A stretch of 64,000 nt of DNA, from assembly GCA_963718875.1 (NCBI GenBank), contig OY970378.1, positions 260,396-324,395 on the forward strand, written 5' to 3'. The notes under the pieces were generated by a model. That model did no database searches. It was not told the DNA's origin and saw nothing but the letters and a program-made list of their open reading frames with translations. The position numbers and the translations under genes were made by a program. Numbering within the stretch: the stretch's first letter is position 1; every line of letters begins with the position of its first letter. The stretch is from Candidatus Parcubacteria bacterium. GTDB taxonomy: Bacteria > Patescibacteriota > Saccharimonadia > UBA4664 > JBIOIQ01. Below, piece by piece: positions 34,553 to 54,263 of the stretch.

Positions 34553-34595
34553 GCTCGTACTCCTTTGCTAGGCGAACGGAACGAGTGGCAATATT

Positions 34596-34763
34596 TACGA
34601 CGGTGATGCAAAGAGCGCTTAGAGAAAGCTTGTCATTTCCGCGTACTCGAGAGCATGAACTTGGTGGGGGCAGGTTTCGCAGAGGGGCAACCCACAGGTT
34701 GTGGGTGAAGTGCCTTCGAACCGGCACTTCTTAACTGCAGGCTTCCCGCAGGTACAGCGTTTG
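34596..34763 (-). CDS. 55-aa Cys-rich Zn-ribbon protein (METNKRCTCGKPAVKKCRFEGTSPTTCGLPLCETCPHQVHALEYAEMTSFL)
   Basis: Translated by hand; RBS GAGGAG 6 nt before ATG; below ORF-track size cutoff. Confidence 0.4.
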
Positions 34764-34880
34764 TTTGTTTCCATAAGTCTCCTCGTGTGCTCGACGTGGT
34801 GAGTGAAGCTTGGTTTATTTATACTCCAGATAAGTCATTATTCAAGCACGAGCGTATTGGTAAAATCTGCTTGCCGATTA

Positions 34881-34920
34881 GCTAATTAACGATTTTCGAA
34901 CTTTGATTCTATGGCGGGCC
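34881..34920 (+). repeat. Rearranged A repeat (GCTAATTAACGATTTTCGAAC then TATGGCGGGCC) followed by module H
   Basis: Module H GGAGGAGCAGGTTAGAACTCATTTT also at 44700-44745. Confidence 0.5.
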
Positions 34921-34963
34921 GTTCCGTCAACTGACGGAGGAGCAGGTTAGAACTCATTTTCTG

Positions 34964-35527
34964 TTAAGCGCTCTGGGCAAGTAGAACAACAAAGAATATG
35001 CCCAGTACATTTAAAAGATACGATACAGCCAAAAAATGGGTGTTATTCATTTTAGAAGCACCTATTAGGCTTACGCCTAGCTCGTCTGGTAGTGGAGAGG
35101 CGATGATTAAGGCTCCTGACAACGGAAGTAGCCAGGCAAAGTAGGGTGTTTTAAAAAGTCGCTTCAGTTTTGGAGTGCCAACTTTTGCCAGGTAGGGCTT
35201 AAGCTCTTTTGTTACCTTGTCTCGGATGAATCTAAAAATAATGTAATCGCCCAGCATTGATCCTATACCAGCTACAATAGCGATTTCGAGTGGGTTGAGA
35301 TGTTTGGCAAGTTCAAACAGGACGTATCCAGCTGGGAGCACGGTATAGGTGGAAACAAAGAGAAAGCCTGCAACAAGTGCTCCGATGTATCCAAGAGAAC
35401 CAAGTCCTTGGATGAGTCCGGCTACTTCAGATGTTTTTGCTAGGAAATAAAAAACAATCATGCCTAGTAGAAGTAGGAATGTGTTTTTAAAACCCCATCC
35501 TCTCCATTTACCTAAAAGCATATCCAT
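34964..35527 (-). CDS. DedA/VTT-family membrane protein
   Basis: TVP38/DedA-like topology and G-rich re-entrant motif (GIGSMLGDYIIFRF). Confidence 0.5.
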   Translation of the reverse strand: MDMLLGKWRGWGFKNTFLLLLGMIVFYFLAKTSEVAGLIQGLGSLGYIGALVAGFLFVSTYTVLPAGYVLFELAKHLNPLEIAIVAGIGSMLGDYIIFRFIRDKVTKELKPYLAKVGTPKLKRLFKTPYFAWLLPLSGALIIASPLPDELGVSLIGASKMNNTHFLAVSYLLNVLGIFFVVLLAQSA

Positions 35528-35680
35528 AATTAAAGTTTACCATGATACAAAAAAGCATAGTAAAGGCTTAATAATTGCTGATGGGTTGTAACTGCCTAAA
35601 AATTGTTAAGCCAGGAAGTCTTTGAACGCTACAGTCGCATAAGCGTCTTTTGTGCTACCTTATTAGCATGAGTGTATTAG

Positions 35681-37201
35681 GTGATTAATGTAAGCAGCAT
35701 AGAAAAAGCTTTTTGGGAGCTGAACGCAGATGATGGTACGGGTTTGCGTACAAGTACAGGCTTGTTTTATAACCATACTGTTTTTGCTCGTGATGTGGCT
35801 ATGATTGCACGATGGATTTTACCCTTGGGTAAAAATTATCAGCAAGTGAGCAGGGAAGTAATTCTGACTTTGTGTTGGCACCAAGGAGTGGAAACCAATC
35901 CTCGGGCTGAAGAGCAGCCAGGACGAATCCATAATGAGTACCGAAAGTTTTCTGCTTGGCAGGCTCCTATGGGAGTAAAAACAATTGGTCGGTTGGTGTC
36001 ATTGCTGTGGGGCGGGAATTTGCATGAGTATACCAGCTATATTGCTGTGGATACGACGCCGTTGTTTGTTCAATTGGTTTGCGCCTATGCGACGCAAGTT
36101 GATCGAGGCATTTTGGACGAAGTGGCGGTACGACACGACGGTCGCGAGGTGAGGGTAGGGCAGTGCTTGAAAGAAGCAATAGACTGGATAGTACATCATC
36201 GCCAGGGTTATGGCCTAATCGCAAACGCCCGCAGTAACCCATTGAGCTTGTATTATGAGGTTTGGAAGGATTCTCATACAGCTCTAATTCACAATAATGG
36301 CCGCTTAGCCTCATTGTCTCGTCCGGTGGCATACTTAGATACACAATTATTGGCAGTTGATGCGCTGCGTGCAGCTGCCGGTTTGCTAGCAGCTGAAAAT
36401 TTAGAATCTAGTCAGTCTTGGCTCAAAATTGCCGATGAGCTGGTGGAGGTAACATTGGAGCGTTTTTGGGAACCAGGGGAGCAGCGGTTTTACGCGGCCT
36501 TGGACCATGATCGGCAGGGTAAATGGAGGCCAGTTATGGCTGAGGGCTCTAACTCAGGATGGTTGCTCGACAGTACTTTTTTTGACAATCTAGAGGGTAA
36601 ACCGTATATGGAAGCGATTGTCAGGCAATTGTTGGGACCGGACTTTTTGACTCCAGCAGGAATCAGGGCGAGGGCAGTTGGTTCAGATAAATGGATTAAG
36701 GCAGCTGATTATCACGGTTCGCACACGGTATGGCCGGTGGATAATTATGTCTTTGCAAGGGGTTTGCGCCGTCAGGGACTACCGCAACTAGCTGAAGTCG
36801 TGGAGCAACGTTTATTACGAGCTGTAGAGAAAGCGGGGGCTTTCTATGAGTACTTTTTGGTTGCTTCAGATGGTCGGGTTGTGTACGAGCCTCATCGTGT
36901 GGTTAAGGAGCGCTATCAGTCACGTTATCGTCGTTTGCCCCGGATGCCTGTGCAGATACTCCCGGAGCGTCAGCTAGCTTGGACAATTTCGGCTTGTTTG
37001 CTCATACAAAAAGGGAGTACGCAAGCTGCTCCCTCTAATACATGGGCGCAGGCGTTGCAGGAGAAGCTGGTGCCACATTTGCTTGAAGTGGAGACAGAAA
37101 ATGATGAAGTTCCGTTTGTTCCAGCCCTCTACCGAGGTGCCGGACGCATAACTCAGATAGCGATCGAGCAATGGGTGCGCGAATATATTTTTCGACGCTA
37201 A
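35681..37201 (+). CDS. (alpha/alpha)6-barrel glycoside hydrolase, amylo-alpha-1,6-glucosidase (GDE_C)/GH63-like
   Basis: 506 aa; blocks (WLLDSTFFDNLEG, TPAGIRARAVGSDKW, TVWPVDNYVFARGLRR) resemble the GDE_C family. Confidence 0.45.
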   Translation: MINVSSIEKAFWELNADDGTGLRTSTGLFYNHTVFARDVAMIARWILPLGKNYQQVSREVILTLCWHQGVETNPRAEEQPGRIHNEYRKFSAWQAPMGVKTIGRLVSLLWGGNLHEYTSYIAVDTTPLFVQLVCAYATQVDRGILDEVAVRHDGREVRVGQCLKEAIDWIVHHRQGYGLIANARSNPLSLYYEVWKDSHTALIHNNGRLASLSRPVAYLDTQLLAVDALRAAAGLLAAENLESSQSWLKIADELVEVTLERFWEPGEQRFYAALDHDRQGKWRPVMAEGSNSGWLLDSTFFDNLEGKPYMEAIVRQLLGPDFLTPAGIRARAVGSDKWIKAADYHGSHTVWPVDNYVFARGLRRQGLPQLAEVVEQRLLRAVEKAGAFYEYFLVASDGRVVYEPHRVVKERYQSRYRRLPRMPVQILPERQLAWTISACLLIQKGSTQAAPSNTWAQALQEKLVPHLLEVETENDEVPFVPALYRGAGRITQIAIEQWVREYIFRR

Positions 37202-37212
37202 TATTTTGCAAC

Positions 37213-37365
37213 CACGGGCAGTTGGTAGGACGCCTATGAGGTAGCGGAGATGTATTTGAGGATGACCAGGATGGTGACTTCGAAAGCTTCGAAGTACTTC
37301 TCCAGGGCTAACTGCATTTCAAGCCGCAGCTTCTCCAGCAGTCCCGGCGTCAACTCGAAGCCCCA
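37213..37365 (+). repeat. Orphan duplicate of the 3' 150 bp of cassette gene 26903..27277, about 90% identical
   Basis: Alignable base by base with 26880-27030. Confidence 0.6.
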
Positions 37366-37418
37366 CCTCATAAAAGCACAAGAGCCGCCCAGCAGGCGGT
37401 CTTGCGCTGCTGAACGGC

Positions 37419-37922
37419 TTATAGATCAGATGGGCAGCCGTGGACGGCCAAGCTCTTGTTCTTGTAGCGGGGGTCGTCGGTGACTTCGATCGCTTCTCCG
37501 AAGAGCTCCACCGGGAACACATATGCCTCCGCTTCGGCCCTAAGGGCTACTTCATCTTCGGGAGGCCCAACCCATTCGGCTTCGACCATCTGCAGGCCCC
37601 AGAGAGGACCATAAAAAATATCCCATTCTAGGGTGGGTGGCCCTGGGATGGAGACTCTCAAGCGATTCTTTTGGATCATGTTCGAGGTCGAGAGGACAAG
37701 TTGGTTGAAGACCCACTCGGGAATTTCCACTTCCCATTCGGAGCGGCTGATGGTCCCGTCACCTTTGACAGTCAGGAAGAACTTTCCGCCCTTGGTTCGA
37801 ATGCGAAGCTCTCCCGGCTCCATGATGATGTAGCCCTGAACAATCTCCTCGCTTCGTAGGCCCGATAGTGTTGCCGGCTTACGGAGAACCCACTTGCGTT
37901 CAATTTCGATCTGGTCAGACAC
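37419..37922 (-). CDS. CYTH-domain protein (class IV adenylyl cyclase / triphosphatase fold)
   Basis: VSDQIEIERKWVL...EIVQGYI...LTVKGDG..SRSEWEVEI; GTG start with RBS AAGGAG. Confidence 0.55.
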   Translation of the reverse strand: MSDQIEIERKWVLRKPATLSGLRSEEIVQGYIIMEPGELRIRTKGGKFFLTVKGDGTISRSEWEVEIPEWVFNQLVLSTSNMIQKNRLRVSIPGPPTLEWDIFYGPLWGLQMVEAEWVGPPEDEVALRAEAEAYVFPVELFGEAIEVTDDPRYKNKSLAVHGCPSDL

Positions 37923-37990
37923 GACTTCTCCTTGATAGGGGGAGTTCTTATATTGTGCTATTAGGGAGCGGAAAAGCAAGCATGAGCAAT

Positions 37991-38347
37991 TTATTTGCTC
38001 AATAAGCCTACTCGACCTAAATCGCTTTCGGGTAAGCCAAGTACCACAAAGACTTCGTGGATAGTTGGGATCACACTACACTGATCGTCGCGTACGGGTG
38101 GGTAGAGCCAGCCTGAATTCCAGCAGCTTGGTTTCTGATCGCCTGTGGGGGTACAGACGGCTACCAGGTATTCAGCGGTGCTCTCAGTTTTTCTACATAT
38201 TCCTGATCGGTTAAGATAGGGGGCCCTGTGTATGGATAGAGACGGTAACCCGTACGACCTGTTCCTGCTACGGCTGGTCTGTGGATGAGGCGGTAAATAC
38301 CACGTAAAAATCCAAATATCATGTCGGCCTCTCTGTAGGGGTGACAT
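37991..38347 (-). CDS. Hypothetical GC-rich cassette protein
   Basis: ORF only. Confidence 0.3.
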   Translation of the reverse strand: MSPLQRGRHDIWIFTWYLPPHPQTSRSRNRSYGLPSLSIHRAPYLNRSGICRKTESTAEYLVAVCTPTGDQKPSCWNSGWLYPPVRDDQCSVIPTIHEVFVVLGLPESDLGRVGLLSK

Positions 38348-38402
38348 AGGCGGTGTTTTAATAAGATATATCTAAACTGCTATGAGCACAAGAATTCTGC
38401 AT

Positions 38403-38437
38403 TATAAAGTGAAAACCCCGCTGGTTGCGAGGCTCAC
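38403..38437. repeat. Module G, copy 2
   Basis: Matches 26826-26860. Confidence 0.5.
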
Positions 38438-38497
38438 TTTGCGGGTGATTCTTGCTTTTGCGGGGTGTTTGTGACGGTCTGACCGTCGTGTTGCGAA

Positions 38498-38935
38498 CTA
38501 CGTCGGGTCGATTCTGGCCTTTGCGTATCTACGGCCGTACTCCTCGGCGCCACTCAGGACTTCGGCGATGTGGGGGTCTTTATCCGACAGCCTTTCCAGA
38601 TGGAGCTTCACGGTGTCTCGTGCGTTGGTCTGATTGACGAACCATTCCACGCACCTCACCCGCGCCTTGTCGCTGTCGGCGGTGATGATATCGCCCTCAC
38701 GAGGTGGGATGGGGAAGCCGTTGACTGGGTAGGGGTCATCCGTCAGACGAGGATCCTGCCCGATAAGCGGCAACAACCACAAGCATGGGTACCTGCTGCC
38801 GCCCTCCACGATCCATTCCACCTGCGCCACGATGTAGGTGAACTCGGCGATGTGGAAGATGTCACCCCTAGAGGGAACTGCATCCATCTCACGGGTACCG
38901 GCACTATATCCGGTTGTGGTATCAACTCTCATCGG
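38498..38935 (-). CDS. Hypothetical cassette protein (start MRVDTTTGY), overlapping operon with 38922..39260
   Basis: GC-rich; 14-bp overlap with upstream ORF. Confidence 0.35.
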   Translation of the reverse strand, partial: PMRVDTTTGYSAGTREMDAVPSRGDIFHIAEFTYIVAQVEWIVEGGSRYPCLWLLPLIGQDPRLTDDPYPVNGFPIPPREGDIITADSDKARVRCVEWFVNQTNARDTVKLHLERLSDKDPHIAEVLSGAEEYGRRYAKARIDPT

Positions 38936-39260
38936 AGGCTCCTGTCTCGGCTTTCTTCTGCCATGCAGAGAGGGCGCAAGCGAGAAGGTAGTCTGCAAGG
39001 ACGGCAGCCATTGGGGTGCTCGTTTGAGGAATTTCCACGGGTACTCCGGCTTTGTTGTCTGCTTCGACTAACTCACGGATGAGATCCCACCGCTCGTCGT
39101 CGGTCAAAAAACGAAGAGCCAGAATTGCAGGTCCGTTGTCGGGATCGGGGTGACTGTGGCCACGGGCTTTGATCTCTTGGGCTTTGGCCATCAAGGCTTC
39201 GAGGTGTTGTCCCATTATATTCAAACCTCTGTCTCCACCGGATGAGAGCGCACCGGTCAA
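38922..39260 (-). CDS. Hypothetical cassette protein
   Basis: GC-rich. Confidence 0.35.
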   Translation of the reverse strand: MTGALSSGGDRGLNIMGQHLEALMAKAQEIKARGHSHPDPDNGPAILALRFLTDDERWDLIRELVEADNKAGVPVEIPQTSTPMAAVLADYLLACALSAWQKKAETGASDES

Positions 39261-39299
39261 CGCATTCAGAACGAATTGACAACTATACTATTTAATCCT

Positions 39300-39420
39300 G
39301 CTTAATGCAAGCACGAGCAATTTAGTTGTTCAATAATATAACCGAGAAAGTATTTACAAAGCAAGAAAATGCAAGCAGGGAAGTTTACGTGTCCTAATTC
39401 AATGGCAGCTTCAGCGAGCT
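39300..39420. promoter_or_regulatory. Module B copy upstream of parB-like gene
   Basis: CAAGCACGAGCAATTTAGTTGTTCAATAATATAACCGAGAAAGTATTTACAAAGC. Confidence 0.5.
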
Positions 39421-39652
39421 CAATGCTGCGGTGGAAGCTGTATGGGTGATAGCACTTTTTGTATTGTTTGATTATTGGTACACTGTGCGTGAGATCAAGG
39501 TGTTTCCAATTTTGCTCATGCTTATGTAATATAGAAATATCCTTTGTACGCTTCAAATAAGTACCAACTTCGCCTTGGCAGATTGGGCATTAATTGTTAA
39601 CGCTCAGCCTGCCGAGAGTCCGGACCGTCCGGACACGCGGAGGAGGATTGAT

Positions 39653-40390
39653 ATGACTGGACTTCGCGTAGTAAAGGATGACGCGCAGGTCAAGCCTGGT
39701 ACTGAGTTCTTTGAGCTGCCACTGGACCTATTGGTCATTGGCGATGACTTCAGGCTAGACGAGGATCTTGAGAGTCTGCAAGCGTTGGCTGAATCAATTG
39801 CGGAACTGGGAGTGTTACAACCGTTACTGGTGCGGGCGAAGGGGGAGGTTTGGGAAGTGGTGGCTGGTCGTCGTCGTCTGGCGGCATCCCGCATGGCCAA
39901 CCTGGAAACCGTGCCGTGTATTGTGGTCAATTCCACTGCAGATCGACCGCTTGATGCTACTTTGGCGGAGAACTTGCATCGCCGCAACTTGTCTCCGATT
40001 GAAGAAGCTCTGGCGTATGCTCGCTTAAGAGATGGAGACGGATTGAACCAGAGACAGATTGCGGATCGCGTGCGCCGCTCCCAGTCACATGTGTCAATGC
40101 ACCTGCGTCTTTTGGATCTATCCGCTGAGGTACAAACCGCGGTCCATCAAGGCAAGCTTTCTTACGTTACGGCCCTTAGGGGACGTAATCGGCCCGGTGG
40201 GCGGGAAGGGGGAGCGGACATCAAGCCGCTTTACGGTGATGAAGGAGCCCTGGCTTCTCATTGGCGTCGCCGTCACGATAGACTGATGACGGCTCTCACG
40301 GTTCTGCTCAGGGCACATCCCGCGAACGTTGCGGAATATCGCCAAATGATTGAGCGGGTAAGAAAGCTGGACGCAAAGCCGCTAGCCTAG
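39653..40390 (+). CDS. ParB/Srx-fold N-terminal-domain protein with HTH (ParB-like nuclease/DNA-binding protein), stand-alone
   Basis: LQPLLVRAKGEVWEVVAGRRRLAASRMANLETVPCIVV...QRQIADRVRRSQSHVSMHLRLL; RBS GGAGGAGG; no parA nearby. Confidence 0.55.
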   Translation: MTGLRVVKDDAQVKPGTEFFELPLDLLVIGDDFRLDEDLESLQALAESIAELGVLQPLLVRAKGEVWEVVAGRRRLAASRMANLETVPCIVVNSTADRPLDATLAENLHRRNLSPIEEALAYARLRDGDGLNQRQIADRVRRSQSHVSMHLRLLDLSAEVQTAVHQGKLSYVTALRGRNRPGGREGGADIKPLYGDEGALASHWRRRHDRLMTALTVLLRAHPANVAEYRQMIERVRKLDAKPLA

Positions 40391-40516
40391 GCGGTATCTA
40401 TGGGTTACGGGGCGGGAAGACCATCTGGTTTTCCCGCTACCGGGCCCTTTTTTAGTTTGCCATGAAGTTATTAATCTATTTCAAAAAGCCCTCACATAAG
40501 GGTGAGGCATTTGCAT

Positions 40517-40562
40517 TGGCGGGAGCTGATTAACGATTTTCGAACGGTTTTAAACTCATAAA
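40517..40562 (+). repeat. A repeat copy (full length)
   Basis: TGGCGGGAGCTGATTAACGATTTTCGAACGGTTTTAAACTCATAAA. Confidence 0.75.
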
Positions 40563-40613
40563 CGCGTTGCGCCCCCAAGCTGAGCAGGGACGCGCGGCGT
40601 GAGGGCGGCGATA

Positions 40614-41195
40614 CTAGAAGCGACTAGGTTTCTTTCGCTTGGCGAAGCGAGGGAAGAACCGGGGGGTTGTAGCTTTATATTTCCTGTACGCATTTCCGAA
40701 GCGCTTTTCCAAGATCTTTTCCTCTTGAGGGACGCGCAAGAAGAATAGGAGAAAAGGGATTGAGTTTCCAAGGGTAGCAACCCAATTGGCGGATACGATG
40801 CCGAACCCGAGGGCAATTATGCCGTACCCGACGTATATCGGATTACGCACGAAATGATACGGCCCATGTGTAACTAGTTGGTGCTTTTTGTTCAGCCCTA
40901 CGCCGCCAACAAAGTTTTTGCCTATGGCTCTCCTACTGTAAATAACAAGCTGGAGCCCGCCGCAAAAGAACAATGCTGCTACAAATCGCCAGGCTGTTCC
41001 ATGCACGGGGAGGTTGGCAAACTCTAACCAGGTTGGATAGAGGTAAAAGATGGTTGTAGTGACGCAGGCGATGCAGATGGAGCATCCGATAATCAGTTCG
41101 CGGAATGGTACTCCTTGCGGCCTTCTGTGTAGTCTATGCGCTATAACAAGGAAGATTGCAAGCTCAAAAGCAGGCAAAGCATAGTGTGCGAACAC
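40614..41195 (-). CDS. Isoprenylcysteine carboxyl / phospholipid methyltransferase family membrane protein
   Basis: HQLVTHGPYHFVRNPIYVGY...EEKILEKRFGNAY matches the C-terminal SAM-binding region of ICMT/PEMT. Confidence 0.55.
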   Translation of the reverse strand: MFAHYALPAFELAIFLVIAHRLHRRPQGVPFRELIIGCSICIACVTTTIFYLYPTWLEFANLPVHGTAWRFVAALFFCGGLQLVIYSRRAIGKNFVGGVGLNKKHQLVTHGPYHFVRNPIYVGYGIIALGFGIVSANWVATLGNSIPFLLFFLRVPQEEKILEKRFGNAYRKYKATTPRFFPRFAKRKKPSRF

Positions 41196-41284
41196 AGCGA
41201 CTCCAGTATGGTCGAGGGATAACTTATTATATCATAAATGTGATTTTAGAACGAAAGTAGCGATGATTACTCGGTTTAATAACG

Positions 41285-41337
41285 AAAAAGGCCCACGGGG
41301 TTGGACCGAAATGGTCTCTTCCGTGGGCTGTTGCCCA
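41285..41337. repeat. Module D hairpin/terminator, copy 2
   Basis: Matches 19199-19250. Confidence 0.65.
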
Positions 41338-42027
41338 TTATGAGGAGGGCGGGATCTCTTTGTATAGCTCCCAACGCTGGTGCCGCTTGCCAGACAACGT
41401 GAGTCCGGATCGGCCGAGAGCTTCACGAATTGCTTCGAAGCGGTCGAGAGCTTTCTGAACAACTCGCTCAGTTCGACCGTACCCAGCAAGCATCAGCCTG
41501 CAAACGGTGAACTCATCAAGTTCCGTCAGTGCTTCGACCGTGGTGATCCCAGCGTCGAGGATCAGTTGGAGCGCGACCTGTGCGTCATGCGATCCGGCCA
41601 GACTAAGACCCTGCAGTGCGTGAGCGCGGGGATGAGGGGAAATCAGCAGCGGTGCTTCCATGCGATTGAGGTTTTCGAAGTAACTGTTGGCCCATGTTAT
41701 CGCTCGACGTCCAATCTCCTCCAGGAAGTCGTCAATAAGGTGGGTCATTGCTCCGCATGAATTGCAGTATCCGGTCCTTCTCTGGCTCCGCGGGTTAACG
41801 GCGATGTCGGACTGCTCGACTGGCGAGCCGGGGCTGGCGGGCTCGAAGTAGGTGCCTTTGAGTTGTCCCACGATGTATGCACCGAGGGTGACACGACTTC
41901 CTCTAGATCCGCTGGGGCATCCAGCATGGCAGGTGACCTGCGGGGATGCGTAGACAAGTCCTTCGCCGTCGGGCTGGTCGCTTTGACGGGAGAAGTGAAC
42001 GTGAAGGAGTCTCTGTCGACGACTCAT
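41338..42027 (-). CDS. Hypothetical cassette protein with C-terminal helix-hairpin-helix-like segment
   Basis: GC-rich; RBS GGAAAGGTGG; LILDAGITTVEALTE...LAGYGRTERVVQKALD. Confidence 0.35.
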   Translation of the reverse strand: MSRRQRLLHVHFSRQSDQPDGEGLVYASPQVTCHAGCPSGSRGSRVTLGAYIVGQLKGTYFEPASPGSPVEQSDIAVNPRSQRRTGYCNSCGAMTHLIDDFLEEIGRRAITWANSYFENLNRMEAPLLISPHPRAHALQGLSLAGSHDAQVALQLILDAGITTVEALTELDEFTVCRLMLAGYGRTERVVQKALDRFEAIREALGRSGLTLSGKRHQRWELYKEIPPSS

Positions 42028-42175
42028 GATGTTACCACCTTTCCAAGTGGTTGGGGGAACGCTTCAAGTATCCAAGAAGCTTTATTAACTATAACATACT
42101 TCAGCAATAAAAACAAGTTATCACAAAAAGAAACAAAAAGAGACTCCGAAAAGTCTCATTTAAGCATAAGTACTA

Positions 42176-42208
42176 TGGCGGGAGCTTATTAACGATTTTC
42201 GAACGGTT
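42176..42208 (+). repeat. A repeat copy fused directly to module B
   Basis: TGGCGGGAGCTTATTAACGATTTTCGAACGGTT then ...AACCGAGATAAGTTTGACA. Confidence 0.75.
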
Positions 42209-42214
42209 ACGGCT

Positions 42215-42300
42215 CAAGCTTAACCGAGATAAGTTTGACATAACGTAAGAATTATGATAAGATGAAGCGATTCTGACGAAAGTCAGCGCTCCTCTCCTGC
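42215..42300. promoter_or_regulatory. Module B promoter TTGACA(42235)-17 bp-TAAGAT(42258) plus leader hairpin CTGACGAAAGTCAG
   Basis: About 85% identical to 27380-27450. Confidence 0.55.
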
Positions 42301-42339
42301 GAGTTGGAATTGGCATTTAGGTAAGTAGGCAAAAAGTAG

Positions 42340-43023
42340 TTGCTTGAATGCCAAGTCCAAATACAGGAGGTATCCGAAATGACAAAGACAATGACCGGCC
42401 CCCAGACCCTCGACGCATTGATTCAGAACTGGTTCATGCTGAGCGATGCCCATTTCATCTCCGTCCTTGGTGACGGCGAGCAGGCACATGAGCTTCTTGA
42501 AGCACTCGACTGCATCGATGAGTCCATCCGCGCCTGCATTGCTCGCGATATCAGACTTGTGCTTGACAACGAGCTGCTCCTCACCAATGAGCGTGTTTGG
42601 CGGTTGCTCTACCACGGAGAAAAGTTAGTAGACGCCATGCTCATGCAGGACTCAGTCCCACGCTTGGCATGGAGTTATGCGCTCAAGTATGTACCTCGAC
42701 GACGCATCCAGGTAGCCGACAGATTGATCGCTGACGGTCAATCCCGGATGCTTCACATAATCGCCCGGATGGTTCCGGAGCGGGCGCGGCTAGCGTGGGA
42801 GATGCTCTGGGGAGGGCCGAGCAATCCTTCCCTGAACACGATCTTGTCGATCGCTAAGGCAAACCCCATGTTCCGTGCCGAAGTCGCCCAGATGCTGCTC
42901 GAGGGTTACCCAAGGGACCGAATTAGTGCCAAATCCATGGCGTGGGTCAGGCGCTACGGCGAGCCTGCTCAACGTTTGGAGGCAGAAGCTCAGCTCGAGC
43001 GTCTGAAGGCTGACCCTCGCTAA
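42340..43023 (+). CDS. Hypothetical 227-aa cassette protein
   Basis: GC-rich; followed by module E. Confidence 0.4.
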   Translation: MLECQVQIQEVSEMTKTMTGPQTLDALIQNWFMLSDAHFISVLGDGEQAHELLEALDCIDESIRACIARDIRLVLDNELLLTNERVWRLLYHGEKLVDAMLMQDSVPRLAWSYALKYVPRRRIQVADRLIADGQSRMLHIIARMVPERARLAWEMLWGGPSNPSLNTILSIAKANPMFRAEVAQMLLEGYPRDRISAKSMAWVRRYGEPAQRLEAEAQLERLKADPR

Positions 43024-43065
43024 CCGTTCCTCTGAACCGCGCCGCTGGTCGTTCCCAACCTGCAC

Positions 43066-43338
43066 AGCCTCGCCGTTCACCTCCATGGTGGGCGGCGGGG
43101 CCGATTCCCAAGTCAATTTATGTAAGTTGGTTTAGGAATCGAAAAAAGCTGGGCTCGACCCTTCGATAAACTCAGGGTAAACCGGATACGGGCTTGACTA
43201 CGTCAACCCTGGCTGCCCGATCGGTCACAGTGCTCCCTCGGGCTAGTCGAACCGGCAGAAGATCGCCGATTCGAATATTCGCTAGCGCTCATCAAGAAAA
43301 GCCGACAACCACAAGGGTCATCGGCTTTTCTTGGCGGG
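43066..43338 (+). repeat. Composite block: module E hairpin, tail (i), about 190-bp segment carrying an inverted partial tRNA-Asp copy (GAACCGGCAGAAGATCGCCGATTCGAA) and hairpin GAAAAGCCGACAACCACAAGGGTCATCGGCTTTTC, ending in TTGGCGGG. Duplicate of 49074-49324
   Basis: Alignable throughout with the block abutting the real tRNA-Asp; 24-bp indel at 43160-43183. Confidence 0.7.
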
Positions 43339-43377
43339 AGCTTATTAACGATTTTCGAACGGTTTTAGCCTCATAAA
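43332..43377 (+). repeat. A repeat copy (full length), occupying the position the tRNA-Asp 3' end occupies in the 49.3-kb copy of the block
   Basis: TGGCGGGAGCTTATTAACGATTTTCGAACGGTTTTAGCCTCATAAA. Confidence 0.8.
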
Positions 43378-43427
43378 TGACGAAAGCTCCCAAACAGGCG
43401 AACTTTCGTTGGCTGCTTGAGAGCTGA

Positions 43428-43913
43428 TCAAACCCTTGAATGGGCGTTCCAGACGGGAGTGCGTACTTCAGAACTCTCTACCTGGAATGCTTCCATCAAG
43501 GCCAGGATATTGCGTCCCCATTGAGTAGTGCGGTCCAGCTCCTCCAAGTACTGCGAAGCTTTGCGGGTGCCAGCATTGACCTCGGCGGTGAGTTTTGCAT
43601 GAGTCGCGAGAATGTCCTGGATGATCAGCTGGATGGCTTCCTTCTGCGACATGTCGCAGGCTTCAGCGAGACGTTGGCACATGTCGAGAAAATCCTCGAA
43701 GGGCGCATCCATGCTTCTCACGACCGTCCCATCGTCTGGTATGTAGGACTCATTGCTGTCACGCGTGGCGCCAGCAGCCAGGTTCCAGGTAATGGCAGCG
43801 AGGTTCTTTGGATTTACGCCATCGCTGCGGATCCCTAGCGGATGCCAAAAACCCCGCAAGTCAAACTGTGTCATGACGATGGCACGGTCGATATTGGGCC
43901 TGAAAAAGGGCAT
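43428..43913 (-). CDS. Hypothetical cassette protein (start MPFFRPNIDRAIV, RBS GGAGG)
   Basis: GC-rich. Confidence 0.4.
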   Translation of the reverse strand: MPFFRPNIDRAIVMTQFDLRGFWHPLGIRSDGVNPKNLAAITWNLAAGATRDSNESYIPDDGTVVRSMDAPFEDFLDMCQRLAEACDMSQKEAIQLIIQDILATHAKLTAEVNAGTRKASQYLEELDRTTQWGRNILALMEAFQVESSEVRTPVWNAHSRV

Positions 43914-44180
43914 AGTATTGCCTCCAAGGTAGGTACGAGTAGGGCTTGGATCTATGCGGCACATAATATCATAAAATAAACAAAATGGCAATAATTTTAA
44001 CCTGAGCCACCAGCACAGAGGATGGCTTTCTATATCTCGTTCACTTTGAGATAAGCAAACAAATAGCTTAAGTAAGCAATAATAAAAGTTAACTTTTTAT
44101 AGGGTTGTTGCTACTGGAAATTCACAAGTCACCTCTTTAACGCTATGATTCAATTACGTCTTGCGATCTAGGAGGTCGTC

Positions 44181-44600
44181 ATGAAGTCCCTACTGTTTAA
44201 TCAATGTCCAAAGCCGGATGTAAACGGCCGGGTTCCGCTAGGTGGCGAGAGACTTGCCCAAATCGATAGCTACACAGTCAAGATCGATACGGCTTCTGGC
44301 TGGTGGGTGTTGGGTTGCATCGCCTTCACTCTGGTGTGCGCTGCTCTTGCCGCCCTTTTATCTCCAATTAGCGGAGACCTTCGCTGGATGTTCTTAATCG
44401 GTGGGGTCATCTTGGGGATGGGCGCATGTTGCGGTCTCTTCGCTGCTGTAGTGGCAGCAGACTATCGTGAGCATGTCAGAAAAGGCGGCCGGGTAGAATA
44501 TATGTCTCATCCATACCCCCATTTGCTCACCTGCGTGGGGCTAGGACGAGATACCAAAGACCCTTACGGCAGGAGGTGGCCAGGGCCGAAATCGGCCTGA
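44181..44600 (+). CDS. Small membrane protein (cassette, divergent from 43428..43913)
   Basis: RBS AGGAGG; two TM. Confidence 0.4.
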   Translation: MKSLLFNQCPKPDVNGRVPLGGERLAQIDSYTVKIDTASGWWVLGCIAFTLVCAALAALLSPISGDLRWMFLIGGVILGMGACCGLFAAVVAADYREHVRKGGRVEYMSHPYPHLLTCVGLGRDTKDPYGRRWPGPKSA

Positions 44601-44848
44601 GATGATGTTAAAAAGCCTGGACGGGGTGGAGGGCTAAGTGCCTCCTGTCCAGGTTAGCGGCCGGGAGAAATTCCGGCCTTTTGTATTGCTGGCGCGTTAC
44701 GTCAACATGGAGGACCAGGTTAGAACTTATTTTATGGTTATTTGAGCATATAAAAGGTGAAACCCCGCCAGAATCAGCGAGGCCACCTTGGAAGATGGTA
44801 CTGATCTTGACGGGGCTGTGGCTTGTAAGTGCTCCCGGTCTGGCTGCT

Positions 44849-45226
44849 CTAGTTCGGATTAAAGATGCGCTTGATGAGCCCGACTGCCCAGAAGGGTGGG
44901 CTTAGCAGAAGACTCAGCCAGATCAATCCCTCCCACCAGACCATCTTTACATCTTCTTCGTAATCGTAAACCAGCTCGGTGAGTACGCCCATGCCGACGA
45001 GCCAGCCGCAGATGAAGAGCAGAAAGGCGAAGATGGCGATTCCATCTCCGGTGCTCAGGTTCTGCTTTCCCGATGGGGAAAAGACTTCGAACCTCTTGCT
45101 CAGTTTCATTCCGCACATGCCGCTGCCTGAGCTGGATGGGGCAGGACATGTGGTTTGGTCTTGTTCGTCGACGGATATGAGTCCGTGGGTGTTGCACTCG
45201 CGAACCGGCCAGCTACGTACTTGCAT
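44849..45226 (-). CDS. WPVREC-THGLISVDE paralog family (copy 2) with C-terminal TM extension
   Basis: Shared N-terminal 35 aa with 31419..31724; promoter TTGACT-16 bp-TATTAT about 60 bp upstream. Confidence 0.5.
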   Translation of the reverse strand: MQVRSWPVRECNTHGLISVDEQDQTTCPAPSSSGSGMCGMKLSKRFEVFSPSGKQNLSTGDGIAIFAFLLFICGWLVGMGVLTELVYDYEEDVKMVWWEGLIWLSLLLSPPFWAVGLIKRIFNPN

Positions 45227-45377
45227 TTGGATTCTCCCGTAGTAGGGCAGAGCGCTTAGATGCGCTTCGCTTGATGACTTGCAGAGATTACGTATGATAA
45301 TAGCATTTTTTTATAAAAAGTCAATCGAAATTAAATAAACAAACAAAAAAGAGGCTTCGTAAAGCCTCAATAATTGC

Positions 45378-45406
45378 ATGGCGGGAGCTTATTGATGATT
45401 TTCGAA
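45378..45406 (+). repeat. A repeat copy (left half)
   Basis: TGGCGGGAGCTTATTGATGATTTTCGAAC. Confidence 0.7.
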
Positions 45407-45497
45407 CTACAGCTGCATTATAAAATGACGATGCCCCCAAAGATGCCTTGCGGCGTCCGAGGGGGCAGTTCGTCAGTCGAGCGAAGGAGCGGCCTTA

Positions 45498-45794
45498 TCA
45501 AGAGGCAATGACGGTGTAGTGGATGCGATGCCAGAGGCCTGTTTTGTAGGGCAGGATGCCCGCATCGTTCAGGTAGAGGCGCTCGGGGGAGCCGGGGTGA
45601 CCAACTTCTCTGACCATGACGAACGGCGCTTCTTCGGTTTCTACGCCGCTGACGATTTCGAACTTCATGCCGCCGTGGAATCGCGTGTCATGTCGTCGGA
45701 TGATGGTTCCTGGTGTGAGGAGGTAGAGATCGTCGGGCCCGAGAGCACCGGGGTGTTGCGGTCGGACGTCGGTAAGATCGGGGTCGGCTCTCAT
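45498..45794 (-). CDS. Hypothetical 98-aa cassette protein
   Basis: GC-rich. Confidence 0.35.
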   Translation of the reverse strand: MRADPDLTDVRPQHPGALGPDDLYLLTPGTIIRRHDTRFHGGMKFEIVSGVETEEAPFVMVREVGHPGSPERLYLNDAGILPYKTGLWHRIHYTVIAS

Positions 45795-45928
45795 CGTTGA
45801 CTTTTATTCGGCTGACGGATGTACTGATGCATTTTCGCACCATTAATGTTGATTATAGCATAAGCATGATAATAAGTCAATAATCTTGATTACATAACAA
45901 AAATAGGCAAGACCTTAATAAGTATTAT

Positions 45929-45980
45929 TGCGGGAGCCTGTTTGCCGACAGGCAGGCTAATTAACGATTTTCGAACCGTT
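45929..45980 (+). repeat. A repeat copy interrupted by a 20-bp hairpin insert (GCGGGAGC-CTGTTTGCCGACAGGCAGG-CTAATTAACGATTTTCGAACCGTT)
   Basis: Read directly. Confidence 0.65.
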
Positions 45981-46041
45981 TACTCGGTTTAATAACGGAA
46001 AGAGCCCCCAGGCAGAGGGATTTCCGTATTGCTTGAGGGCT

Positions 46042-46278
46042 TCAATTGGAAGGTCGCTTGATGCGCCGTACGAATTCATCGACATCGTCTTGATGTATAC
46101 GTGTCGCATGGTGGTTGCCGTCATCGATCTTGAATCGCAAGCCCCTCCCTAGGGCTGGCCTACCCGCTATGCCTTCGATGAAATAGCTGACATACTGCGT
46201 CTGCCGACCAACTAGATCTGATACCACCATCAGTGGCACATAGCCATCGGCGTCCGGTGAGTTATCGAAGATGGGCAT
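46042..46278 (-). CDS. Hypothetical 78-aa cassette protein
   Basis: ORF only. Confidence 0.3.
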   Translation of the reverse strand: MPIFDNSPDADGYVPLMVVSDLVGRQTQYVSYFIEGIAGRPALGRGLRFKIDDGNHHATRIHQDDVDEFVRRIKRPSN

Positions 46279-46290
46279 CTTTGGCCAGAT

Positions 46291-46605
46291 TCAATTAGTT
46301 TTCTCGGCTGCAGTCTCGATGTTGACTTTGGCTTCCATGACAGCGACTTGCCCCATGTACTTGGGGATCATTGCGATGGCAGCCTTTCCGGCACGTGCTT
46401 TGGCAGCCTCTTCCGTCTCAGCCGAGAGACTGAAGTCAAACCTGACCTCACAGAAGACGTTTGGGTCTGGTTCGATGAAGATTTCCAAACCCCAGAAGTC
46501 GTAATCATGGAGCAGGGTTTGACGGATTTCGGCCTCGTGTTGAGGAAGCAGGGTTGTAGCCGGACCTACCAAGGACAGGGTGACGTGGGCTTTCCAGTCT
46601 TGCAT
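46291..46605 (-). CDS. Hypothetical 104-aa cassette protein (start MQDWKAHV, RBS AAGGAG)
   Basis: GC-rich. Confidence 0.35.
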   Translation of the reverse strand: MQDWKAHVTLSLVGPATTLLPQHEAEIRQTLLHDYDFWGLEIFIEPDPNVFCEVRFDFSLSAETEEAAKARAGKAAIAMIPKYMGQVAVMEAKVNIETAAEKTN

Positions 46606-46639
46606 TGCGACTCCTTTTGTCGGGGGTTCCACCGGATGA

Positions 46640-46762
46640 AAGCGCACCGGTCCACGCATTCAGAACGAATTGATAACTATGCTACTAAAATACGCTTATT
46701 GCAACCATAAGCGGCAAAGCTTATCGAGAAAGTATTGACAAAGCATAAGTATTGTGCTAGTA
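46640..46762. promoter_or_regulatory. Module B copy with promoter TTGACA(46734)-17 bp-TAGTAT(46757)
   Basis: Shares CAACGCATTCAGAACGAATTGA(C/T)AACTAT with 39252-39280. Confidence 0.55.
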
Positions 46763-46886
46763 TTGTTGGATTCAATCGTTAAGGTTGAAATGTTCCTTAC
46801 AACTTCCTTTCTTGGTGTTTGTCGACTTGGTCACTAACAGCTTTAGCTGCTAGATCGACAGACATCTCAACGAAAGGAAAACTGTC

Positions 46887-47495
46887 ATGACACTGGCCGT
46901 CCAGATCTTCATCCACTCCAACCCCTTTGTCGGGATCATTTCCGACGTGGCATTCAACCGCATCGTTTCACGAGCGGTTTACGCAAGGGCCGAGGACATC
47001 CAGAAGCGCTACATGGCGGGCGAATACCCCCGCGATTCCTTCAGCTTCACCATACTCGACCCCACAGCTCCGGCCTCAACACCGAGCGAGGACGCCATCA
47101 TGGTGCTTGCCCTCATCGGGCCAGAGGGAGCAGACTTCGCTCCCAACGGCCTTGCCAAGGCAATCGAACACCGGGACTCGGGTACGGAGTGTGGTGTGCT
47201 GGTGTACACCCAGAAGCACCGGCTGCCCAGTGGAAGCTTCCGCTACGGGTTCTCCGTCTGCCTCGACGGCACCTACGTCGGCGGCAGTGGCGAAACCGAA
47301 CTTCAGGACCGCTACCAGTGCACCCTTCTCGCCGCGGATTTCAACCTCCGCATCGACACGACCATCAAGGAGTGGGAAGAGGTTCACGGCCCCGGTCGCT
47401 GGTTCAGCGAAGACAACAAGCCGGGCAGACGCATCACAGACGCGCTTGTATCGGTCATGTCAAGCCACCCCATGAGCCGTCCTGGCACGTCATGA
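46887..47495 (+). CDS. Hypothetical 202-aa cassette protein
   Basis: GC-rich; antisense ORFs rejected. Confidence 0.4.
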   Translation: MTLAVQIFIHSNPFVGIISDVAFNRIVSRAVYARAEDIQKRYMAGEYPRDSFSFTILDPTAPASTPSEDAIMVLALIGPEGADFAPNGLAKAIEHRDSGTECGVLVYTQKHRLPSGSFRYGFSVCLDGTYVGGSGETELQDRYQCTLLAADFNLRIDTTIKEWEEVHGPGRWFSEDNKPGRRITDALVSVMSSHPMSRPGTS

Positions 47496-47507
47496 CGTAA
47501 GCAGCAC

Positions 47508-47630
47508 AGCCTCGCCGTTCACCCTAGGGTGGGCGGCGGGGCCGATTCCCAAGCCCGTTAACGCAAGTTAATTGGCTTAGTAGTCGAAAGACTGATTTAC
47601 ATTCCCACAACCGCTCTGAAAGGAGCAACC
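47508..47630 (+). repeat. Module E hairpin plus promoter/leader module (ii) (...TTAACGCAAGTTAATTGGCTTAGTAGTCGAAAGACTGATTTACATTCCCACAACCGCTCTGAAAGGAG) running into the next start codon
   Basis: Near-identical copy at 48467-48590; related copy at 59640-59736. Confidence 0.65.
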
Positions 47631-47996
47631 ATGCTGAATTCTGTCGCCCGAGCCTCCCAGGCACTGGCAATCTGGCGCATCGCCGAAACCGGAGTCACCA
47701 ATGAGACGGACAACCGGGCCGATCTGAAAGGAGCGGTAGTACAAGCCCATCAGCAGTTCTTGCAGGCGGCCTACGACGTCGCCTTTGAACTGGTCCCCTT
47801 GCTTCTGAAGCACGGGGAAGTAGTCGCCAAGACTACAGTTCGCTACTCGGCTACTCCGGCCAACGGCGGCTTCGTACTGCAGGCGATGTCCGAAGACGAT
47901 CCCGGCATGCCGCTGAATCCCAACTCGCACGTCGAGCGGATACTCCAGCTCATGGTCGACCTGACGGAGCTGCTCGAGATCCTAGGGGTAGAGTAA
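47631..47996 (+). CDS. Hypothetical 121-aa cassette protein
   Basis: Stop overlaps start of next ORF (ATGA-type coupling). Confidence 0.4.
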   Translation: MLNSVARASQALAIWRIAETGVTNETDNRADLKGAVVQAHQQFLQAAYDVAFELVPLLLKHGEVVAKTTVRYSATPANGGFVLQAMSEDDPGMPLNPNSHVERILQLMVDLTELLEILGVE

Positions 47997-48454
47997 TGGA
48001 GTGCCCCAATTGTGGAGAGTCTGGACAGCCCGGTCATCACTGGTTGGCTGGGCAAGGATACGTCTGCTTCAACAAAGATGGGGGAGACGACGTTCCTCCT
48101 CCTGATATCCAGCTCTCGAAAGGAGCGGTAATGCCAGACACCGATGAGGTCCGTGTTTCGGATCTCCACCAGAGCTGTACTTTCAACGTCATCTACCATC
48201 CCACGAGCAACAGTCCGCTCTGTAACAAGCCCGCTACGTCGTTGGTGATGGTGACCGACGCTCCGCGCGTAAGCCAGCCGCCCAAGTGGCGGTGCGACGA
48301 GCACGAGGGCATGGTCAGCAGAGACGAGCGAGGAGAAGTTGTCACAGCCATGCCGCGTGAGCTGGCGGATTCGTTGACAGATCGCAGGCTTGGCAAGCCT
48401 GGCAACCCCATCCGGGCTTGGCTCGACATGCCGCCCCACGATGAGCCGTACTGA
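47996..48454 (+). CDS. Zn-ribbon (CPNCGESG...) cassette protein
   Basis: N-terminal CxxC plus downstream Cys/His. Confidence 0.4.
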   Translation: MECPNCGESGQPGHHWLAGQGYVCFNKDGGDDVPPPDIQLSKGAVMPDTDEVRVSDLHQSCTFNVIYHPTSNSPLCNKPATSLVMVTDAPRVSQPPKWRCDEHEGMVSRDERGEVVTAMPRELADSLTDRRLGKPGNPIRAWLDMPPHDEPY

Positions 48455-48466
48455 TCGCTTGTAGCA

Positions 48467-48590
48467 AGCCTCGCCGTTCACCTTCTGGGTGGGCGGCGGG
48501 GCCGATTCCCAAGTCTGTTAACGCAAGTTAATTGGCTTAGTAGTCGAAAGACTGATTTACATTCCCACAACCGCTCTCGAAAGGAGCATC
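48467..48590 (+). repeat. Module E plus promoter/leader module (ii), copy
   Basis: As 47508-47630. Confidence 0.65.
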
Positions 48591-49070
48591 ATGCGAACTC
48601 TGTCAAGTTTGGAGTACAGCGAAGCCAGGCTGCTTCTCGAGTACATCGTCGATCAAGCTGGAGATGCCAAGGTTGCAATCTGCGTAGTGGACGCAACCGG
48701 CAAGCTTTTGGCTGCGGCTTCAATCAACGGCGCCGCCTCTCACTACATGACCTTCGCCCTGGCCAAAGCCATCACCGGTCTTCACGAAGAGGATGACACG
48801 GCTGGTTTCCGCCACGATCAGCCTGACCACAGCAGTTGGGTCCCGAAGGAAGAAGGCCAAGGCTGGTCCGAGGGGGAACTAATTCTTGCCGCGCAGCTCA
48901 GCCCAGGCTTCTGCGGCTGGGCAGGGGGCTCAGTCGTAATAGATCCTTCCGAAGAGCTTCACATCTGTGGCTCCATCGGTGTCAGCGGTTTGATGGAGTT
49001 GGAGGATCAAGAGTTGGCGGACAAGCTGCCTGCCCGATTGGTAGCTTTGATACTTACATCGCTATCGCAG
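48591..49070 (+). CDS. GlcG/HbpS-like DUF336 protein (putative heme/cofactor-binding); listed ORF continues to 49232 by reading through module E, so the true 3' end is uncertain
   Basis: A..DAKVAICVVDATGKLLAAASINGAA...FALAKAITG pattern typical of DUF336. Confidence 0.5.
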
Positions 49071-49073
49071 CAT

Positions 49074-49324
49074 AGCCTCGCCGTTCACCTCCGGGTGGGC
49101 GGCGGGGCCGATTCCCAAGTTAGTTATAAAGTTAACTGGTTTAGGAATCGAAAAAAGCTGGGCTCGACTGGATACGGGCTTGACTACGTCAACCCTGGCT
49201 GCCCGATCGGTCGCAGTGTTCCCTCGGGCTAGTCGAACCGGCAGAAGATCGCCGGTTCGAACATTCGCTAGCGCTCATTAAGAAAAGCCGACAACCACAA
49301 GGGTCATCGGCTTTTCTTGGCGGG
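49074..49324 (+). repeat. tRNA-proximal copy of the composite block (E hairpin, tail (i), 190-bp segment with inverted partial tRNA copy, hairpin) ending in the tRNA-Asp 3' end
   Basis: Duplicate of 43066-43338. Confidence 0.7.
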
Positions 49325-49394
49325 CTCGACCGGATTCGAACCGGCGATCTTCTCCGTGACAGGGAGACATGTTGGGCCTCTACACCACGAGCCC
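49318..49394 (-). tRNA. tRNA-Asp (anticodon GTC), GC-rich
   Basis: Cloverleaf read by hand: acceptor GGGCTCG, anticodon arm TCTCC-CTGTCAC-GGAGA, T-arm GCCGG-TTCGAAT-CCGGT, CCA encoded. Confidence 0.8.
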
Positions 49395-50297: not shown

Positions 50298-50373
50298 TGG
50301 AGCCACCTATCGGATTTGAACCGATGACCTTTGCTTTACGAAAGCACTGCTCTACCAACTGAGCTAAGGTGGC
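50298..50373 (-). tRNA. tRNA-Thr (anticodon CGT)
   Basis: Acceptor GCCACCT/AGGTGGC, D-arm GCTCAGTTGGTAGAGC, anticodon loop TTCGTAA, T-arm ATCGG-TTCAAAT-CCGAT, CCA encoded. Confidence 0.75.
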
Positions 50374-54187: not shown

Positions 54188-54263
54188 TGGAGCGAGTGAC
54201 GGGAATCGAACCCGTGACTCGACCTTGGGAAGGTCGCATTTTACCCCTAAACTACACTCGCGC
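54188..54263 (-). tRNA. tRNA-Gly (anticodon CCC)
   Basis: Acceptor GCGCGAG, D-loop TAGTTTAGGGGTA, anticodon arm CGACC-TTCCCAA-GGTCG, T-arm ACGGG-TTCGATT-CCCGT, CCA. Confidence 0.75.

Follow-up and report, generated by a model that had tools for sequence, protein, structure and literature searches.

The 64-kb window analyzed here (the whole stretch of 64,000 nucleotides from contig OY970378.1 of Candidatus Parcubacteria bacterium, assembly GCA_963718875.1) contains an array of small gene cassettes next to an intact tRNA-Asp gene. The cassettes are punctuated by a short repeat, which we call A, and the subject of this report is the relation between A, the tRNA and a duplicated block of about 250 bp that abuts both of them. 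The tRNA-Asp gene (GTC, with the CCA encoded; 49318–49394, minus strand; ARAGORN, and Rfam tRNA family with 62.1 bits) forms the right-hand anchor of the island. To its right lie core-type genes, which code for an ECF-type sigma factor, a family-4 glycosyltransferase, ribosomal protein L25 and NrdR, and to its left there is a long run of small, mostly unannotatable open reading frames (ORFs) in both orientations. The A-punctuated cassette array as a whole spans positions 31317–49317, with genes on both strands, and possible older remnants of it extend back to ~21750. The GC content is uneven, with 58–60% at 47–49 kb versus 40–45% in the flanks.

The duplicated block and the A repeat

According to the initial annotation, which was made from the sequence alone, the ~250-bp context of the tRNA is duplicated inside the array. 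Our analysis confirmed the duplication: positions 43062–43338 and 49070–49324, both read on the plus strand, form one repeat (blastn E=3e-90), for which pairwise alignment, self-BLAST and a scripted count agree on 240 matches and 10 mismatches (96.0% identity), with 32 gap columns that are mostly due to one 23-nt indel. The 60 nt that flank the two copies on each side are unrelated, so that the repeat stands alone and is not part of a larger segmental duplication, the alternative that the annotation itself had raised. The identity stops exactly after TGGCGGG (43332–43338 and 49318–49324), which on the plus strand is the complement of the last 7 nt of tRNA-Asp (CCC, the discriminator G and CCA). 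As had been noted, one copy runs into A exactly where the other runs into the tRNA body, and the alignment identifies this position as a genuine junction and a candidate exchange point.

Both copies of the block are built of the same parts in the same order. In the copy beside tRNA-Asp, a hairpin termed E (49075–49108) and a tail are followed by a degenerate direct partial copy of the tRNA-Asp 3' end (GCTGGGCTCGACTGGATA, 49157–49174, vs TGGCGGGCTCGACCGGATT in the tRNA), an arm, an inverted pseudo tRNA 3' half (49233–49279), a terminator hairpin (49280–49317) and TGGCGGG. The second copy comprises E (43067–43101), the partial tRNA copy (43148–43188, split by a 23-nt insertion at 43160–43182), the inverted pseudo half (43247–43293), the terminator (43294–43331) and TGGCGGG, and runs on into A. 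The direct partial tRNA copy, of which GGGCTCGACTGGAT is present at 49160–49173 and in split form at 43151–43188, had been overlooked in the initial annotation. The partial copy on the opposite strand had been recognized there, and we could substantiate it: the 19-mer AGAAGATCGCCGGTTCGAA at 49243–49261 on the plus strand is identical to 49335–49353 on the minus strand, and the inverted repeat with the tRNA spans 113 nt (49243–49353) at 74% identity, with one mismatch in the 43-kb copy. Positions 49236–49360 can be folded into a single hairpin with the terminator as its axis (−74 kcal/mol, z=−10.4); in this junction-spanning palindrome, the terminator lies between the inverted pseudo half and the real 3' half of the tRNA.

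The 23-nt insertion variant of the block was also found in a related locus from another genome (L051, see below), and this shared indel polymorphism, together with the 4% divergence, argues against a fresh duplication in situ as the source of the two copies. The architecture had been likened to integrase arms or attP. This comparison holds insofar as the block is a unit that resembles an att scar, but no integrase was found in the 64 kb or in the loci of the relatives. Searches with positions 43040–43400 against 50,697 phage and 72,556 plasmid records returned no match, and the same was true of A, E, the partial tRNA copy and the tRNA-Asp end in IMG/VR; we rejected an origin of the block as a phage or plasmid attP. 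The segment between the block copies (43339–49069, 5.7 kb) begins with the body of an A copy and holds about ten small ORFs and two further A sites, as well as a series of plus-strand genes with high GC (58–60%), each of which has an E hairpin behind it.

E is a module in its own right, a 15-bp GC-rich hairpin that occurs in the window at 27997–28031, 47508–47542 and 48468–48502 in addition to the two block copies. It is perfect only as a plus-sense RNA, by virtue of G·U pairs (−32 vs −22 kcal/mol), and is always located just 3' of plus-strand genes, without a U tract. E looks like an I-shaped terminator or stabilizer rather than a DNA site.

A is a structureless motif of 22–30 nt, (TGGCGGGA)GCTNATTAAYGATTTTCGAAC, without dyad symmetry. 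Nine solid copies were identified, all on the plus strand and between positions 31317 and 45981 (nhmmer E-values from 1e-16 to 7e-6). The core is matched ten times in the window, against 1.3 matches expected, and the profile search detected no copy outside the 31–46 kb region of the window. Naming the copies by their positions in kb, A45.9k (45929–45981) is nearest to the tRNA, and in it a left part TTGCGGGAGCC is followed by a 20-nt hairpin insertion and then by the core. In A45.4k (45379–45407; TGGCGGGAGCTTATTGATGATTTTCGAAC) the similarity stops just past TTCGAAC. A43k (43332–43377, E=1e-16), the copy that follows the block, has the core TGGCGGGAGCTTATTAACGATTTTCGAAC (to 43360) and the right flank GGTTTTAGCCTCATAAA. 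A42k (42176–42204) is identical in 30 of 30 positions to the A of two other genomes (L033 and L036), and lies between divergent genes, as the sole copy that is not 3' of a minus-strand gene; A40k is located at 40517–40562. Among the more distant copies, A34k (34880–34901) consists of the core only, with its TGGCGGG part replaced, A33k (33391–33438) has this part replaced by TTAACGCGAT, A32k (32109–32137) abuts the stop codon of a MASE1 gene, and the left part of A31k (31317–31361) has degenerated to GGTGGGCT.

TGGCGGG opens A at 32109, 40517, 42176, 43332 and 45379. Its distribution is polar: it is lost in the tRNA-distant copies A31k, A33k and A34k, which keep GCTNATTAAYGATTTTCGAAC, and is kept in four of the five copies nearest to the tRNA, the very nearest, A45.9k, having a degenerate version. 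Eight of the nine copies lie 3' of a co-oriented gene, and the cassettes carry genes on both strands together with their own promoters. Right-end remnants of A (…GGCCTCATAAA) that lack the core were found at 34128–34146 and 37359–37372, one of them fused to a 150-nt fragment (37216–37365) of the gene at 26885–27034, with 97% identity; we take such remnants as signs of deletions and rearrangements inside the island.

Related loci and cassette replacement

We scanned 185,579 genomes, one per species, for the 17-mer core of A. The 82 hits obtained are estimated to be about the number expected by chance, and the full A profile was matched only by L033, L036 and L051 (E≤3e-10; remaining hits E≥2e-4). 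A metagenome scan added one short true relative, L083, and a close relative of 1.3 kb, L089, was also compared. Genomes carrying relatives of the repeats are labelled, for example, Candidatus Saccharimonadia. The A core is identical in 28–30 of 30 positions among the window, L033, L036 and L051, and tRNA-Asp is ~93% identical between the window and L033/L036. Beyond these elements, L033 and L036 have nothing in common with the window, and for L051 the similarity is limited to short non-coding modules. With this cross-genome identity and no fold, A behaves as a sequence-specific DNA site.

All genomes in which A was found have it linked to tRNA-Asp. In the window, L033, L036, L051 and L089 it always lies 3' of tRNA-Asp in the same orientation, at a distance from the tRNA 3' end of 98 nt in L089, 457 nt in L033, 696 nt in L036, 2.4 and 3.3 kb for the two copies in L051, and 3.3 to 18 kb in the window; we infer that the chance of such a linkage is roughly 0.2–0.3% per lineage.

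The relatives also reveal that the block contains a conserved unit. Classical scars of the tRNA 3' end, with the identity TGGCGGGCYCGACCGGAT and a break in the T loop, are found inside a unit of ~150–250 bp that ends in a terminator. Six such units from four genomes can be aligned, each consisting of a partial tRNA 3' end, an arm, a T-arm-like hairpin with CG(N)TTCGAA, a terminator and TGGCGGG. In L051, where tRNA-Asp is located at 6305–6381, two units stand in tandem before it, one with the left end TGGCGGGCTCGACCGGAT (an 18-nt tRNA copy, ~6160–6177) joined to AGCGGCT, and one with the same end plus a 25-nt insertion, starting near 5957. L036 (3612–3630) and L033 (33–51) have a 19-nt direct partial tRNA copy, (T/G)GGCGGGCCCGACCGGATT, followed by the arm, a CGAACCGC(G/T)GTTTCGAA hairpin and the terminator. 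What comes after the unit is the tRNA (window at 49 kb, L051b), a partial tRNA (L051a) or A (window at 43 kb, L033, L036), so that, by position, A and the tRNA end can replace each other.

Two further observations concern junctions in these relatives. At 111–184 of L033 there is a junction-spanning palindrome whose arms are the left end of A (AAGCTCCCGCCA…TGGCGGGAGCTT). At 4741–4765 of L051, the left flank of a partial tRNA copy (5931–5965) is joined to a right flank of A (2986–3052), as GAGTCGAATGGCGG followed directly by ACTAATTTAG, without the 22-nt A core; this recombination scar is unexplained.

Comparison of L033 with L036 reveals a precise replacement of one cassette by another. The two loci are collinear at 87% identity as far as the A core, including its last base, and collinear again, at 74% over 2.5 kb, starting with the first base of the TGGCGGG of the tRNA; between the A core and the tRNA end they carry unrelated cassettes of 457 nt (L033) and 696 nt (L036), the former coding for a YafQ/ParE-type toxin and a small partner ORF. 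In the window, flanks are likewise combined in different ways on the two sides of A. The left-flank family of A32k, A42k and A45.4k carries three different right flanks, and the right-flank family R1, GGTTTTAGCCTCATAAA, of A31k, A33k, A40k and A43k occurs with several left flanks. A G/T variant inside A correlates with the right flank and not with the left one, and six A copies with unrelated left flanks are all joined at TGGCGGG. The order of the cassette genes in L083 and L089 differs from that in the window.

Other non-coding modules recur as well. A promoter/5' untranslated region module of ~100 nt was found at 39234–39336, 46628–46712, 21522–21590, 27306–27374 and 37973–38005 of the window, at 3769–3852 of L051 and in L089, and two terminator modules recur in the window (31362–31406; 34138–34190, equivalent to 37366–37419). 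These promoter and terminator modules flank unrelated ORFs and are 76–92% conserved in another genome, which makes these non-coding adaptors better conserved than the genes beside them.

Possible origin of the array

Our tentative interpretation, which we favor with less than even confidence, is that the locus is a cassette island anchored at tRNA-Asp, formed by successive insertions at CCCGCCA, and that A is the junction site on the side of the cassette. According to this model, the 3' flank of tRNA-Asp would accrete cassettes one by one at the tRNA 3' end (CCCGCCA, or TGGCGGG on the plus strand). A circular intermediate, i.e. a cassette bearing A, would undergo Campbell-type recombination with either the tRNA end or an A already present, inside the shared TGGCGGG or beside it, and the recombinase would be a trans-acting one, encoded elsewhere in the 1.19-Mb genome. 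The tRNA would be kept intact, the incoming cassette would bring its terminator, and the older A would be displaced inwards. A would then move with the cassettes and occupy the slot otherwise held by the tRNA end, and two kinds of scars would mark the junctions, namely partial copies of the tRNA 3' end in the conserved unit, and the A site. The 279-bp direct repeat formed by the two block copies could be a signature of insertion, if the segment 43339–49069 and its own block had entered beside the resident block; this incoming segment would itself once have been excised from a position adjacent to a tRNA.

Several points weigh against this interpretation. Pfam searches detected no tyrosine, serine, DDE or HUH recombinase among ~60 ORFs of the window and 9 ORFs of L033 and L051. 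The sequence next to TGGCGGG differs between A (AGCTTATTAACG) and the tRNA (CTCGACCGGATT), and on the other side there is a variable terminator, hence the two sites do not have in common the two inverted half-sites that a conventional tyrosine recombinase would require; the missing dyad symmetry of A points in the same direction. The promoter module and the terminators are, like A, conserved across genomes and coincide with homology breakpoints, so that a large part of the mosaic could be produced by plain homologous recombination between portable modules. Read in the direction of the adjacent gene, the strongest terminator comes after A, which implies that A may be transcribed. Finally, neither a circular form nor an empty site nor a population variant was seen; when empty tRNA-Asp sites were sought by way of the neighboring core gene, the contigs of the relatives proved to break at or before the tRNA cluster.

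A serious alternative, which we nevertheless consider rather unlikely, is a shuffling of modules by RecA-type recombination (e.g. after natural transformation) among A, E, the promoter module, the terminators and the tRNA-flank unit. A would then be conserved for some other reason, for instance as a protein-binding insulator or regulatory site, and TGGCGGG would be where an A-bearing segment happens to stop resembling the tRNA flank. Positions 2970–3054 of L051 indeed correspond to 31324–31406 of the window and 3954–4005 to 37370–37419, with different ORFs in between; the promoter module is shared by the window, L051 and L089; and some breakpoints fall at promoter modules, the homology with L089 ending at position 39332 of the window and not at A. 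The 279-bp repeat is long enough for Campbell-type homologous integration, and no recombinase was found nearby. However, such shuffling leaves unexplained why A keeps to the flank of tRNA-Asp in all genomes concerned, why it takes exactly the slot of the tRNA end after the conserved unit, and why six A copies with unrelated left flanks have a common joint at TGGCGGG; moreover, a core of 22–30 nt is short for efficient homologous exchange.

It is improbable that A is a module at the RNA level, i.e. a 3' end of minus-strand cassette genes that precedes the terminator, mimics a tRNA 3' end plus terminator (…GCUCCCGCCA + hairpin) and could serve in processing, stability or tRNA-end mimicry. Such a role would agree with the location of eight A copies behind co-oriented genes, with the hairpin-plus-U-tract terminators that directly follow A on the strand of the gene at 32k, 33k, 40k, 42k and 45.4k, and with the CCCGCCA in which A ends like the tRNA. 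On the other hand, A42k has no upstream gene, in L083, in L089 and at position 26.8k of the window the gene's own terminator precedes A, and A matches no Rfam family. Neither is there a conserved structure: RNAalifold predicted 0 conserved pairs for 15 A copies from six sources, and single copies fold no better than shuffled sequences (z from −1.6 to +1.1); T-arm pairing is not retained either. The acceptor-like stem is part of the hairpin of the upstream gene and is missing in several copies. A tRNA-like minihelix was examined as a separate candidate and rejected: the acceptor stem GGGRGC/GCUCCC can be formed in four to five copies only, at no fixed position, its 5' strand belongs to the hairpin of the upstream gene, and RNAalifold finds no pairs.

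Least probable is the idea, put forward in the initial annotation, that A is a true descendant of the tRNA-Asp 3' half, which would have started as an old att duplicate, drifted, and then been copied. The similarity consists of only two exact 7-mers, CCCGCCA and the T-loop-like GTTCGAA, which are collinear and similarly spaced (p ~0.008 by a statistic tailored to collinear 7-mers); an end-to-end alignment of 31 vs 27 nt, chosen post hoc, was reached by 0 of 20000 shuffles (<5e-5), and A does hold the position of real partial tRNA copies. Against this, the local alignment of A with the tRNA is not better than that of shuffled sequences (p=0.13), similar values being obtained with two control genes, tRNA-Thr (50298–50373) and tRNA-Gly (54188–54261), both on the minus strand and identified by ARAGORN and Rfam. 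A profile built from seven A copies failed to match the tRNA end with the filters switched off and a threshold as lenient as E≤10, and neither ARAGORN nor Rfam (E≤5) recognized a tRNA in any A copy. The 11–15 nt between the 7-mers are unrelated and of unequal length, A does not vary between genomes whose genuine partial tRNA copies have kept their resemblance to the tRNA, and the similarity of the inverted pseudo-half to A is not significant (p=0.58). The inverted pseudo-half was also considered as a missing link between the tRNA and A and rejected, with p-values of 0.49 and 0.58 for the tail alignments. With unbiased tests at chance level, homology of A to the tRNA is not demonstrable. The shared motifs pointed out in the initial annotation, TGGCGGG and the T-loop region, stand as such, with a marginal overall similarity; its observations were largely correct and its interpretation is partly supported, in that the junction and an att-like role are borne out and the descent from the tRNA is not.

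Returning to the model of serial insertion at the tRNA end, the locus appears to work most like a tRNA-anchored island of accreted integrative elements, including integrase-less, att-flanked remnants. Islands that grow by tandem accretion at tRNA genes comprise integrase-less remnants of the CIME (cis-mobilizable element) type, marine picocyanobacterial islands and tycheposons (bioRxiv 10.1101/2020.12.28.424599). Common to them and to our locus are the intact tRNA gene at one boundary, the internal partial copies of its 3' end, present here as direct repeats, and the foreign, strain-variable cargo, evident here from the GC profile and from the comparisons of L033 with L036 and of the window with L083, L089 and L051; in such islands, arrays arise because each insertion restores the tRNA. 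The locus differs in that no integrase or replication gene was found in the window, in that most internal junctions are A sites, which share only 7 nt with the tRNA, and in the tiny size of the units (0.5–6 kb, often a single gene). A partial tRNA copy that would mark the left boundary was searched for within the 64-kb window and was not found.

Integrons and CALINs (clusters of attC sites lacking integron integrases) are likewise arrays of small cassettes with a conserved site in fixed orientation and, for eight of the nine A copies here, a co-oriented adjacent gene, with a single primary insertion point (as inferred here) and a cassette order and content that vary between strains. Here, however, Pfam scans of the window ORFs found no IntI-type tyrosine recombinase next to the array, A does not have the imperfect-palindrome architecture of attC, the cassettes bring their own promoters and terminators with genes on both strands, and the primary site would be a tRNA 3' end, not attI. 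The locus thus resembles an integron or CALIN in the logic of its cassettes, but lacking both an integrase and the attC architecture, it qualifies neither as one of these nor as a full tRNA-anchored island. IMEX (integrative mobile elements exploiting Xer, which use host XerCD at dif) and the dif modules of Acinetobacter plasmids are also recombinase-less segments piled up in tandem at one site, with hybrid sites of limited resemblance to the target between them; their target is dif and not a tRNA gene end, and by eye no XerC/XerD arms are recognizable in A. A itself was rejected as an integron attC site (it is conserved in sequence, with 0 consensus pairs, unremarkable z-scores and no symmetry), as a REP/BIME (repetitive extragenic palindrome or interspersed mosaic element) or MITE (miniature inverted-repeat transposable element), as a parS site for the ParB of the island, and as a DNA-uptake sequence, because it has no symmetry and is confined to one locus, i.e. 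to 31–46 kb of the window and to the neighborhood of tRNA-Asp in the relatives.

Cargo of the island and its significance

The region of possible older remnants contains a coproporphyrin-type heme cluster (21758–26257), with genes for porphobilinogen deaminase, uroporphyrinogen-III synthase, a chlorite-dismutase-like protein (HemQ type), uroporphyrinogen decarboxylase and ferrochelatase, located inside the island of a ~1.2-Mb genome of the patescibacterial type. To our knowledge, a heme cluster of the coproporphyrin type is unusual for this group. The plus-strand gene run at 46887–49232 (58–60% GC versus 40–45% in its flanks) starts with a gene (46887–47495) whose homologs, 48–60% identical, occur in ordinary metabolic, non-island contexts of unrelated contigs, one of them 4 Mb long, which suggests that the run was imported recently from a high-GC donor. 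The last ORF of the run (48591–49232) is HbpS-like; the domain ends at residue 144, there is no in-frame stop until 49232, and the ORF continues across the E hairpin and the partial tRNA copy, so that it is either a frameshifted gene or one with a genuine extension. The island also carries a solitary gene for a ParB-like protein (39575–40390, with ParB N-terminal and helix-turn-helix domains), and Pfam scans revealed no ParA-type partner among the other island ORFs.

Patescibacteria have minimal genomes and few recognized mobile elements, and their acquisition of genes is poorly understood. We found no description of an island of this kind in Saccharibacteria in the literature. Here, foreign-looking cassettes for heme synthesis, sensors and ParB (and toxin-antitoxin pairs in relatives) take up at least 18 kb, possibly ~28 kb, beside one tRNA gene; they are punctuated by a site that is conserved like a tRNA, without a linked recombinase. 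What is genuinely unexplained is this combination of the A site, as conserved as a tRNA, with the missing recombinase. If A is a recombination site, it would provide a simple, searchable marker for gene-capture loci in the phylum, and would point to a recombinase that has specificity for a tRNA end and spares the tRNA. If it is not, A is still a motif that is conserved like a tRNA gene and tied to one tRNA gene.

More speculatively, and with a good deal of doubt, Saccharimonadia may possess an integron-like platform for gene capture, with the last 7 nt of tRNA-Asp as the primary site, A as the cassette site, and an unlinked, possibly housekeeping, recombinase. The junction-spanning palindromes, in which a tRNA or A half and its inverted copy enclose a terminator, might serve to present the site on incoming single-stranded DNA. 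If this were true, such a platform would allow ultra-small epibionts to stockpile host-derived genes, for example those of a full heme pathway.

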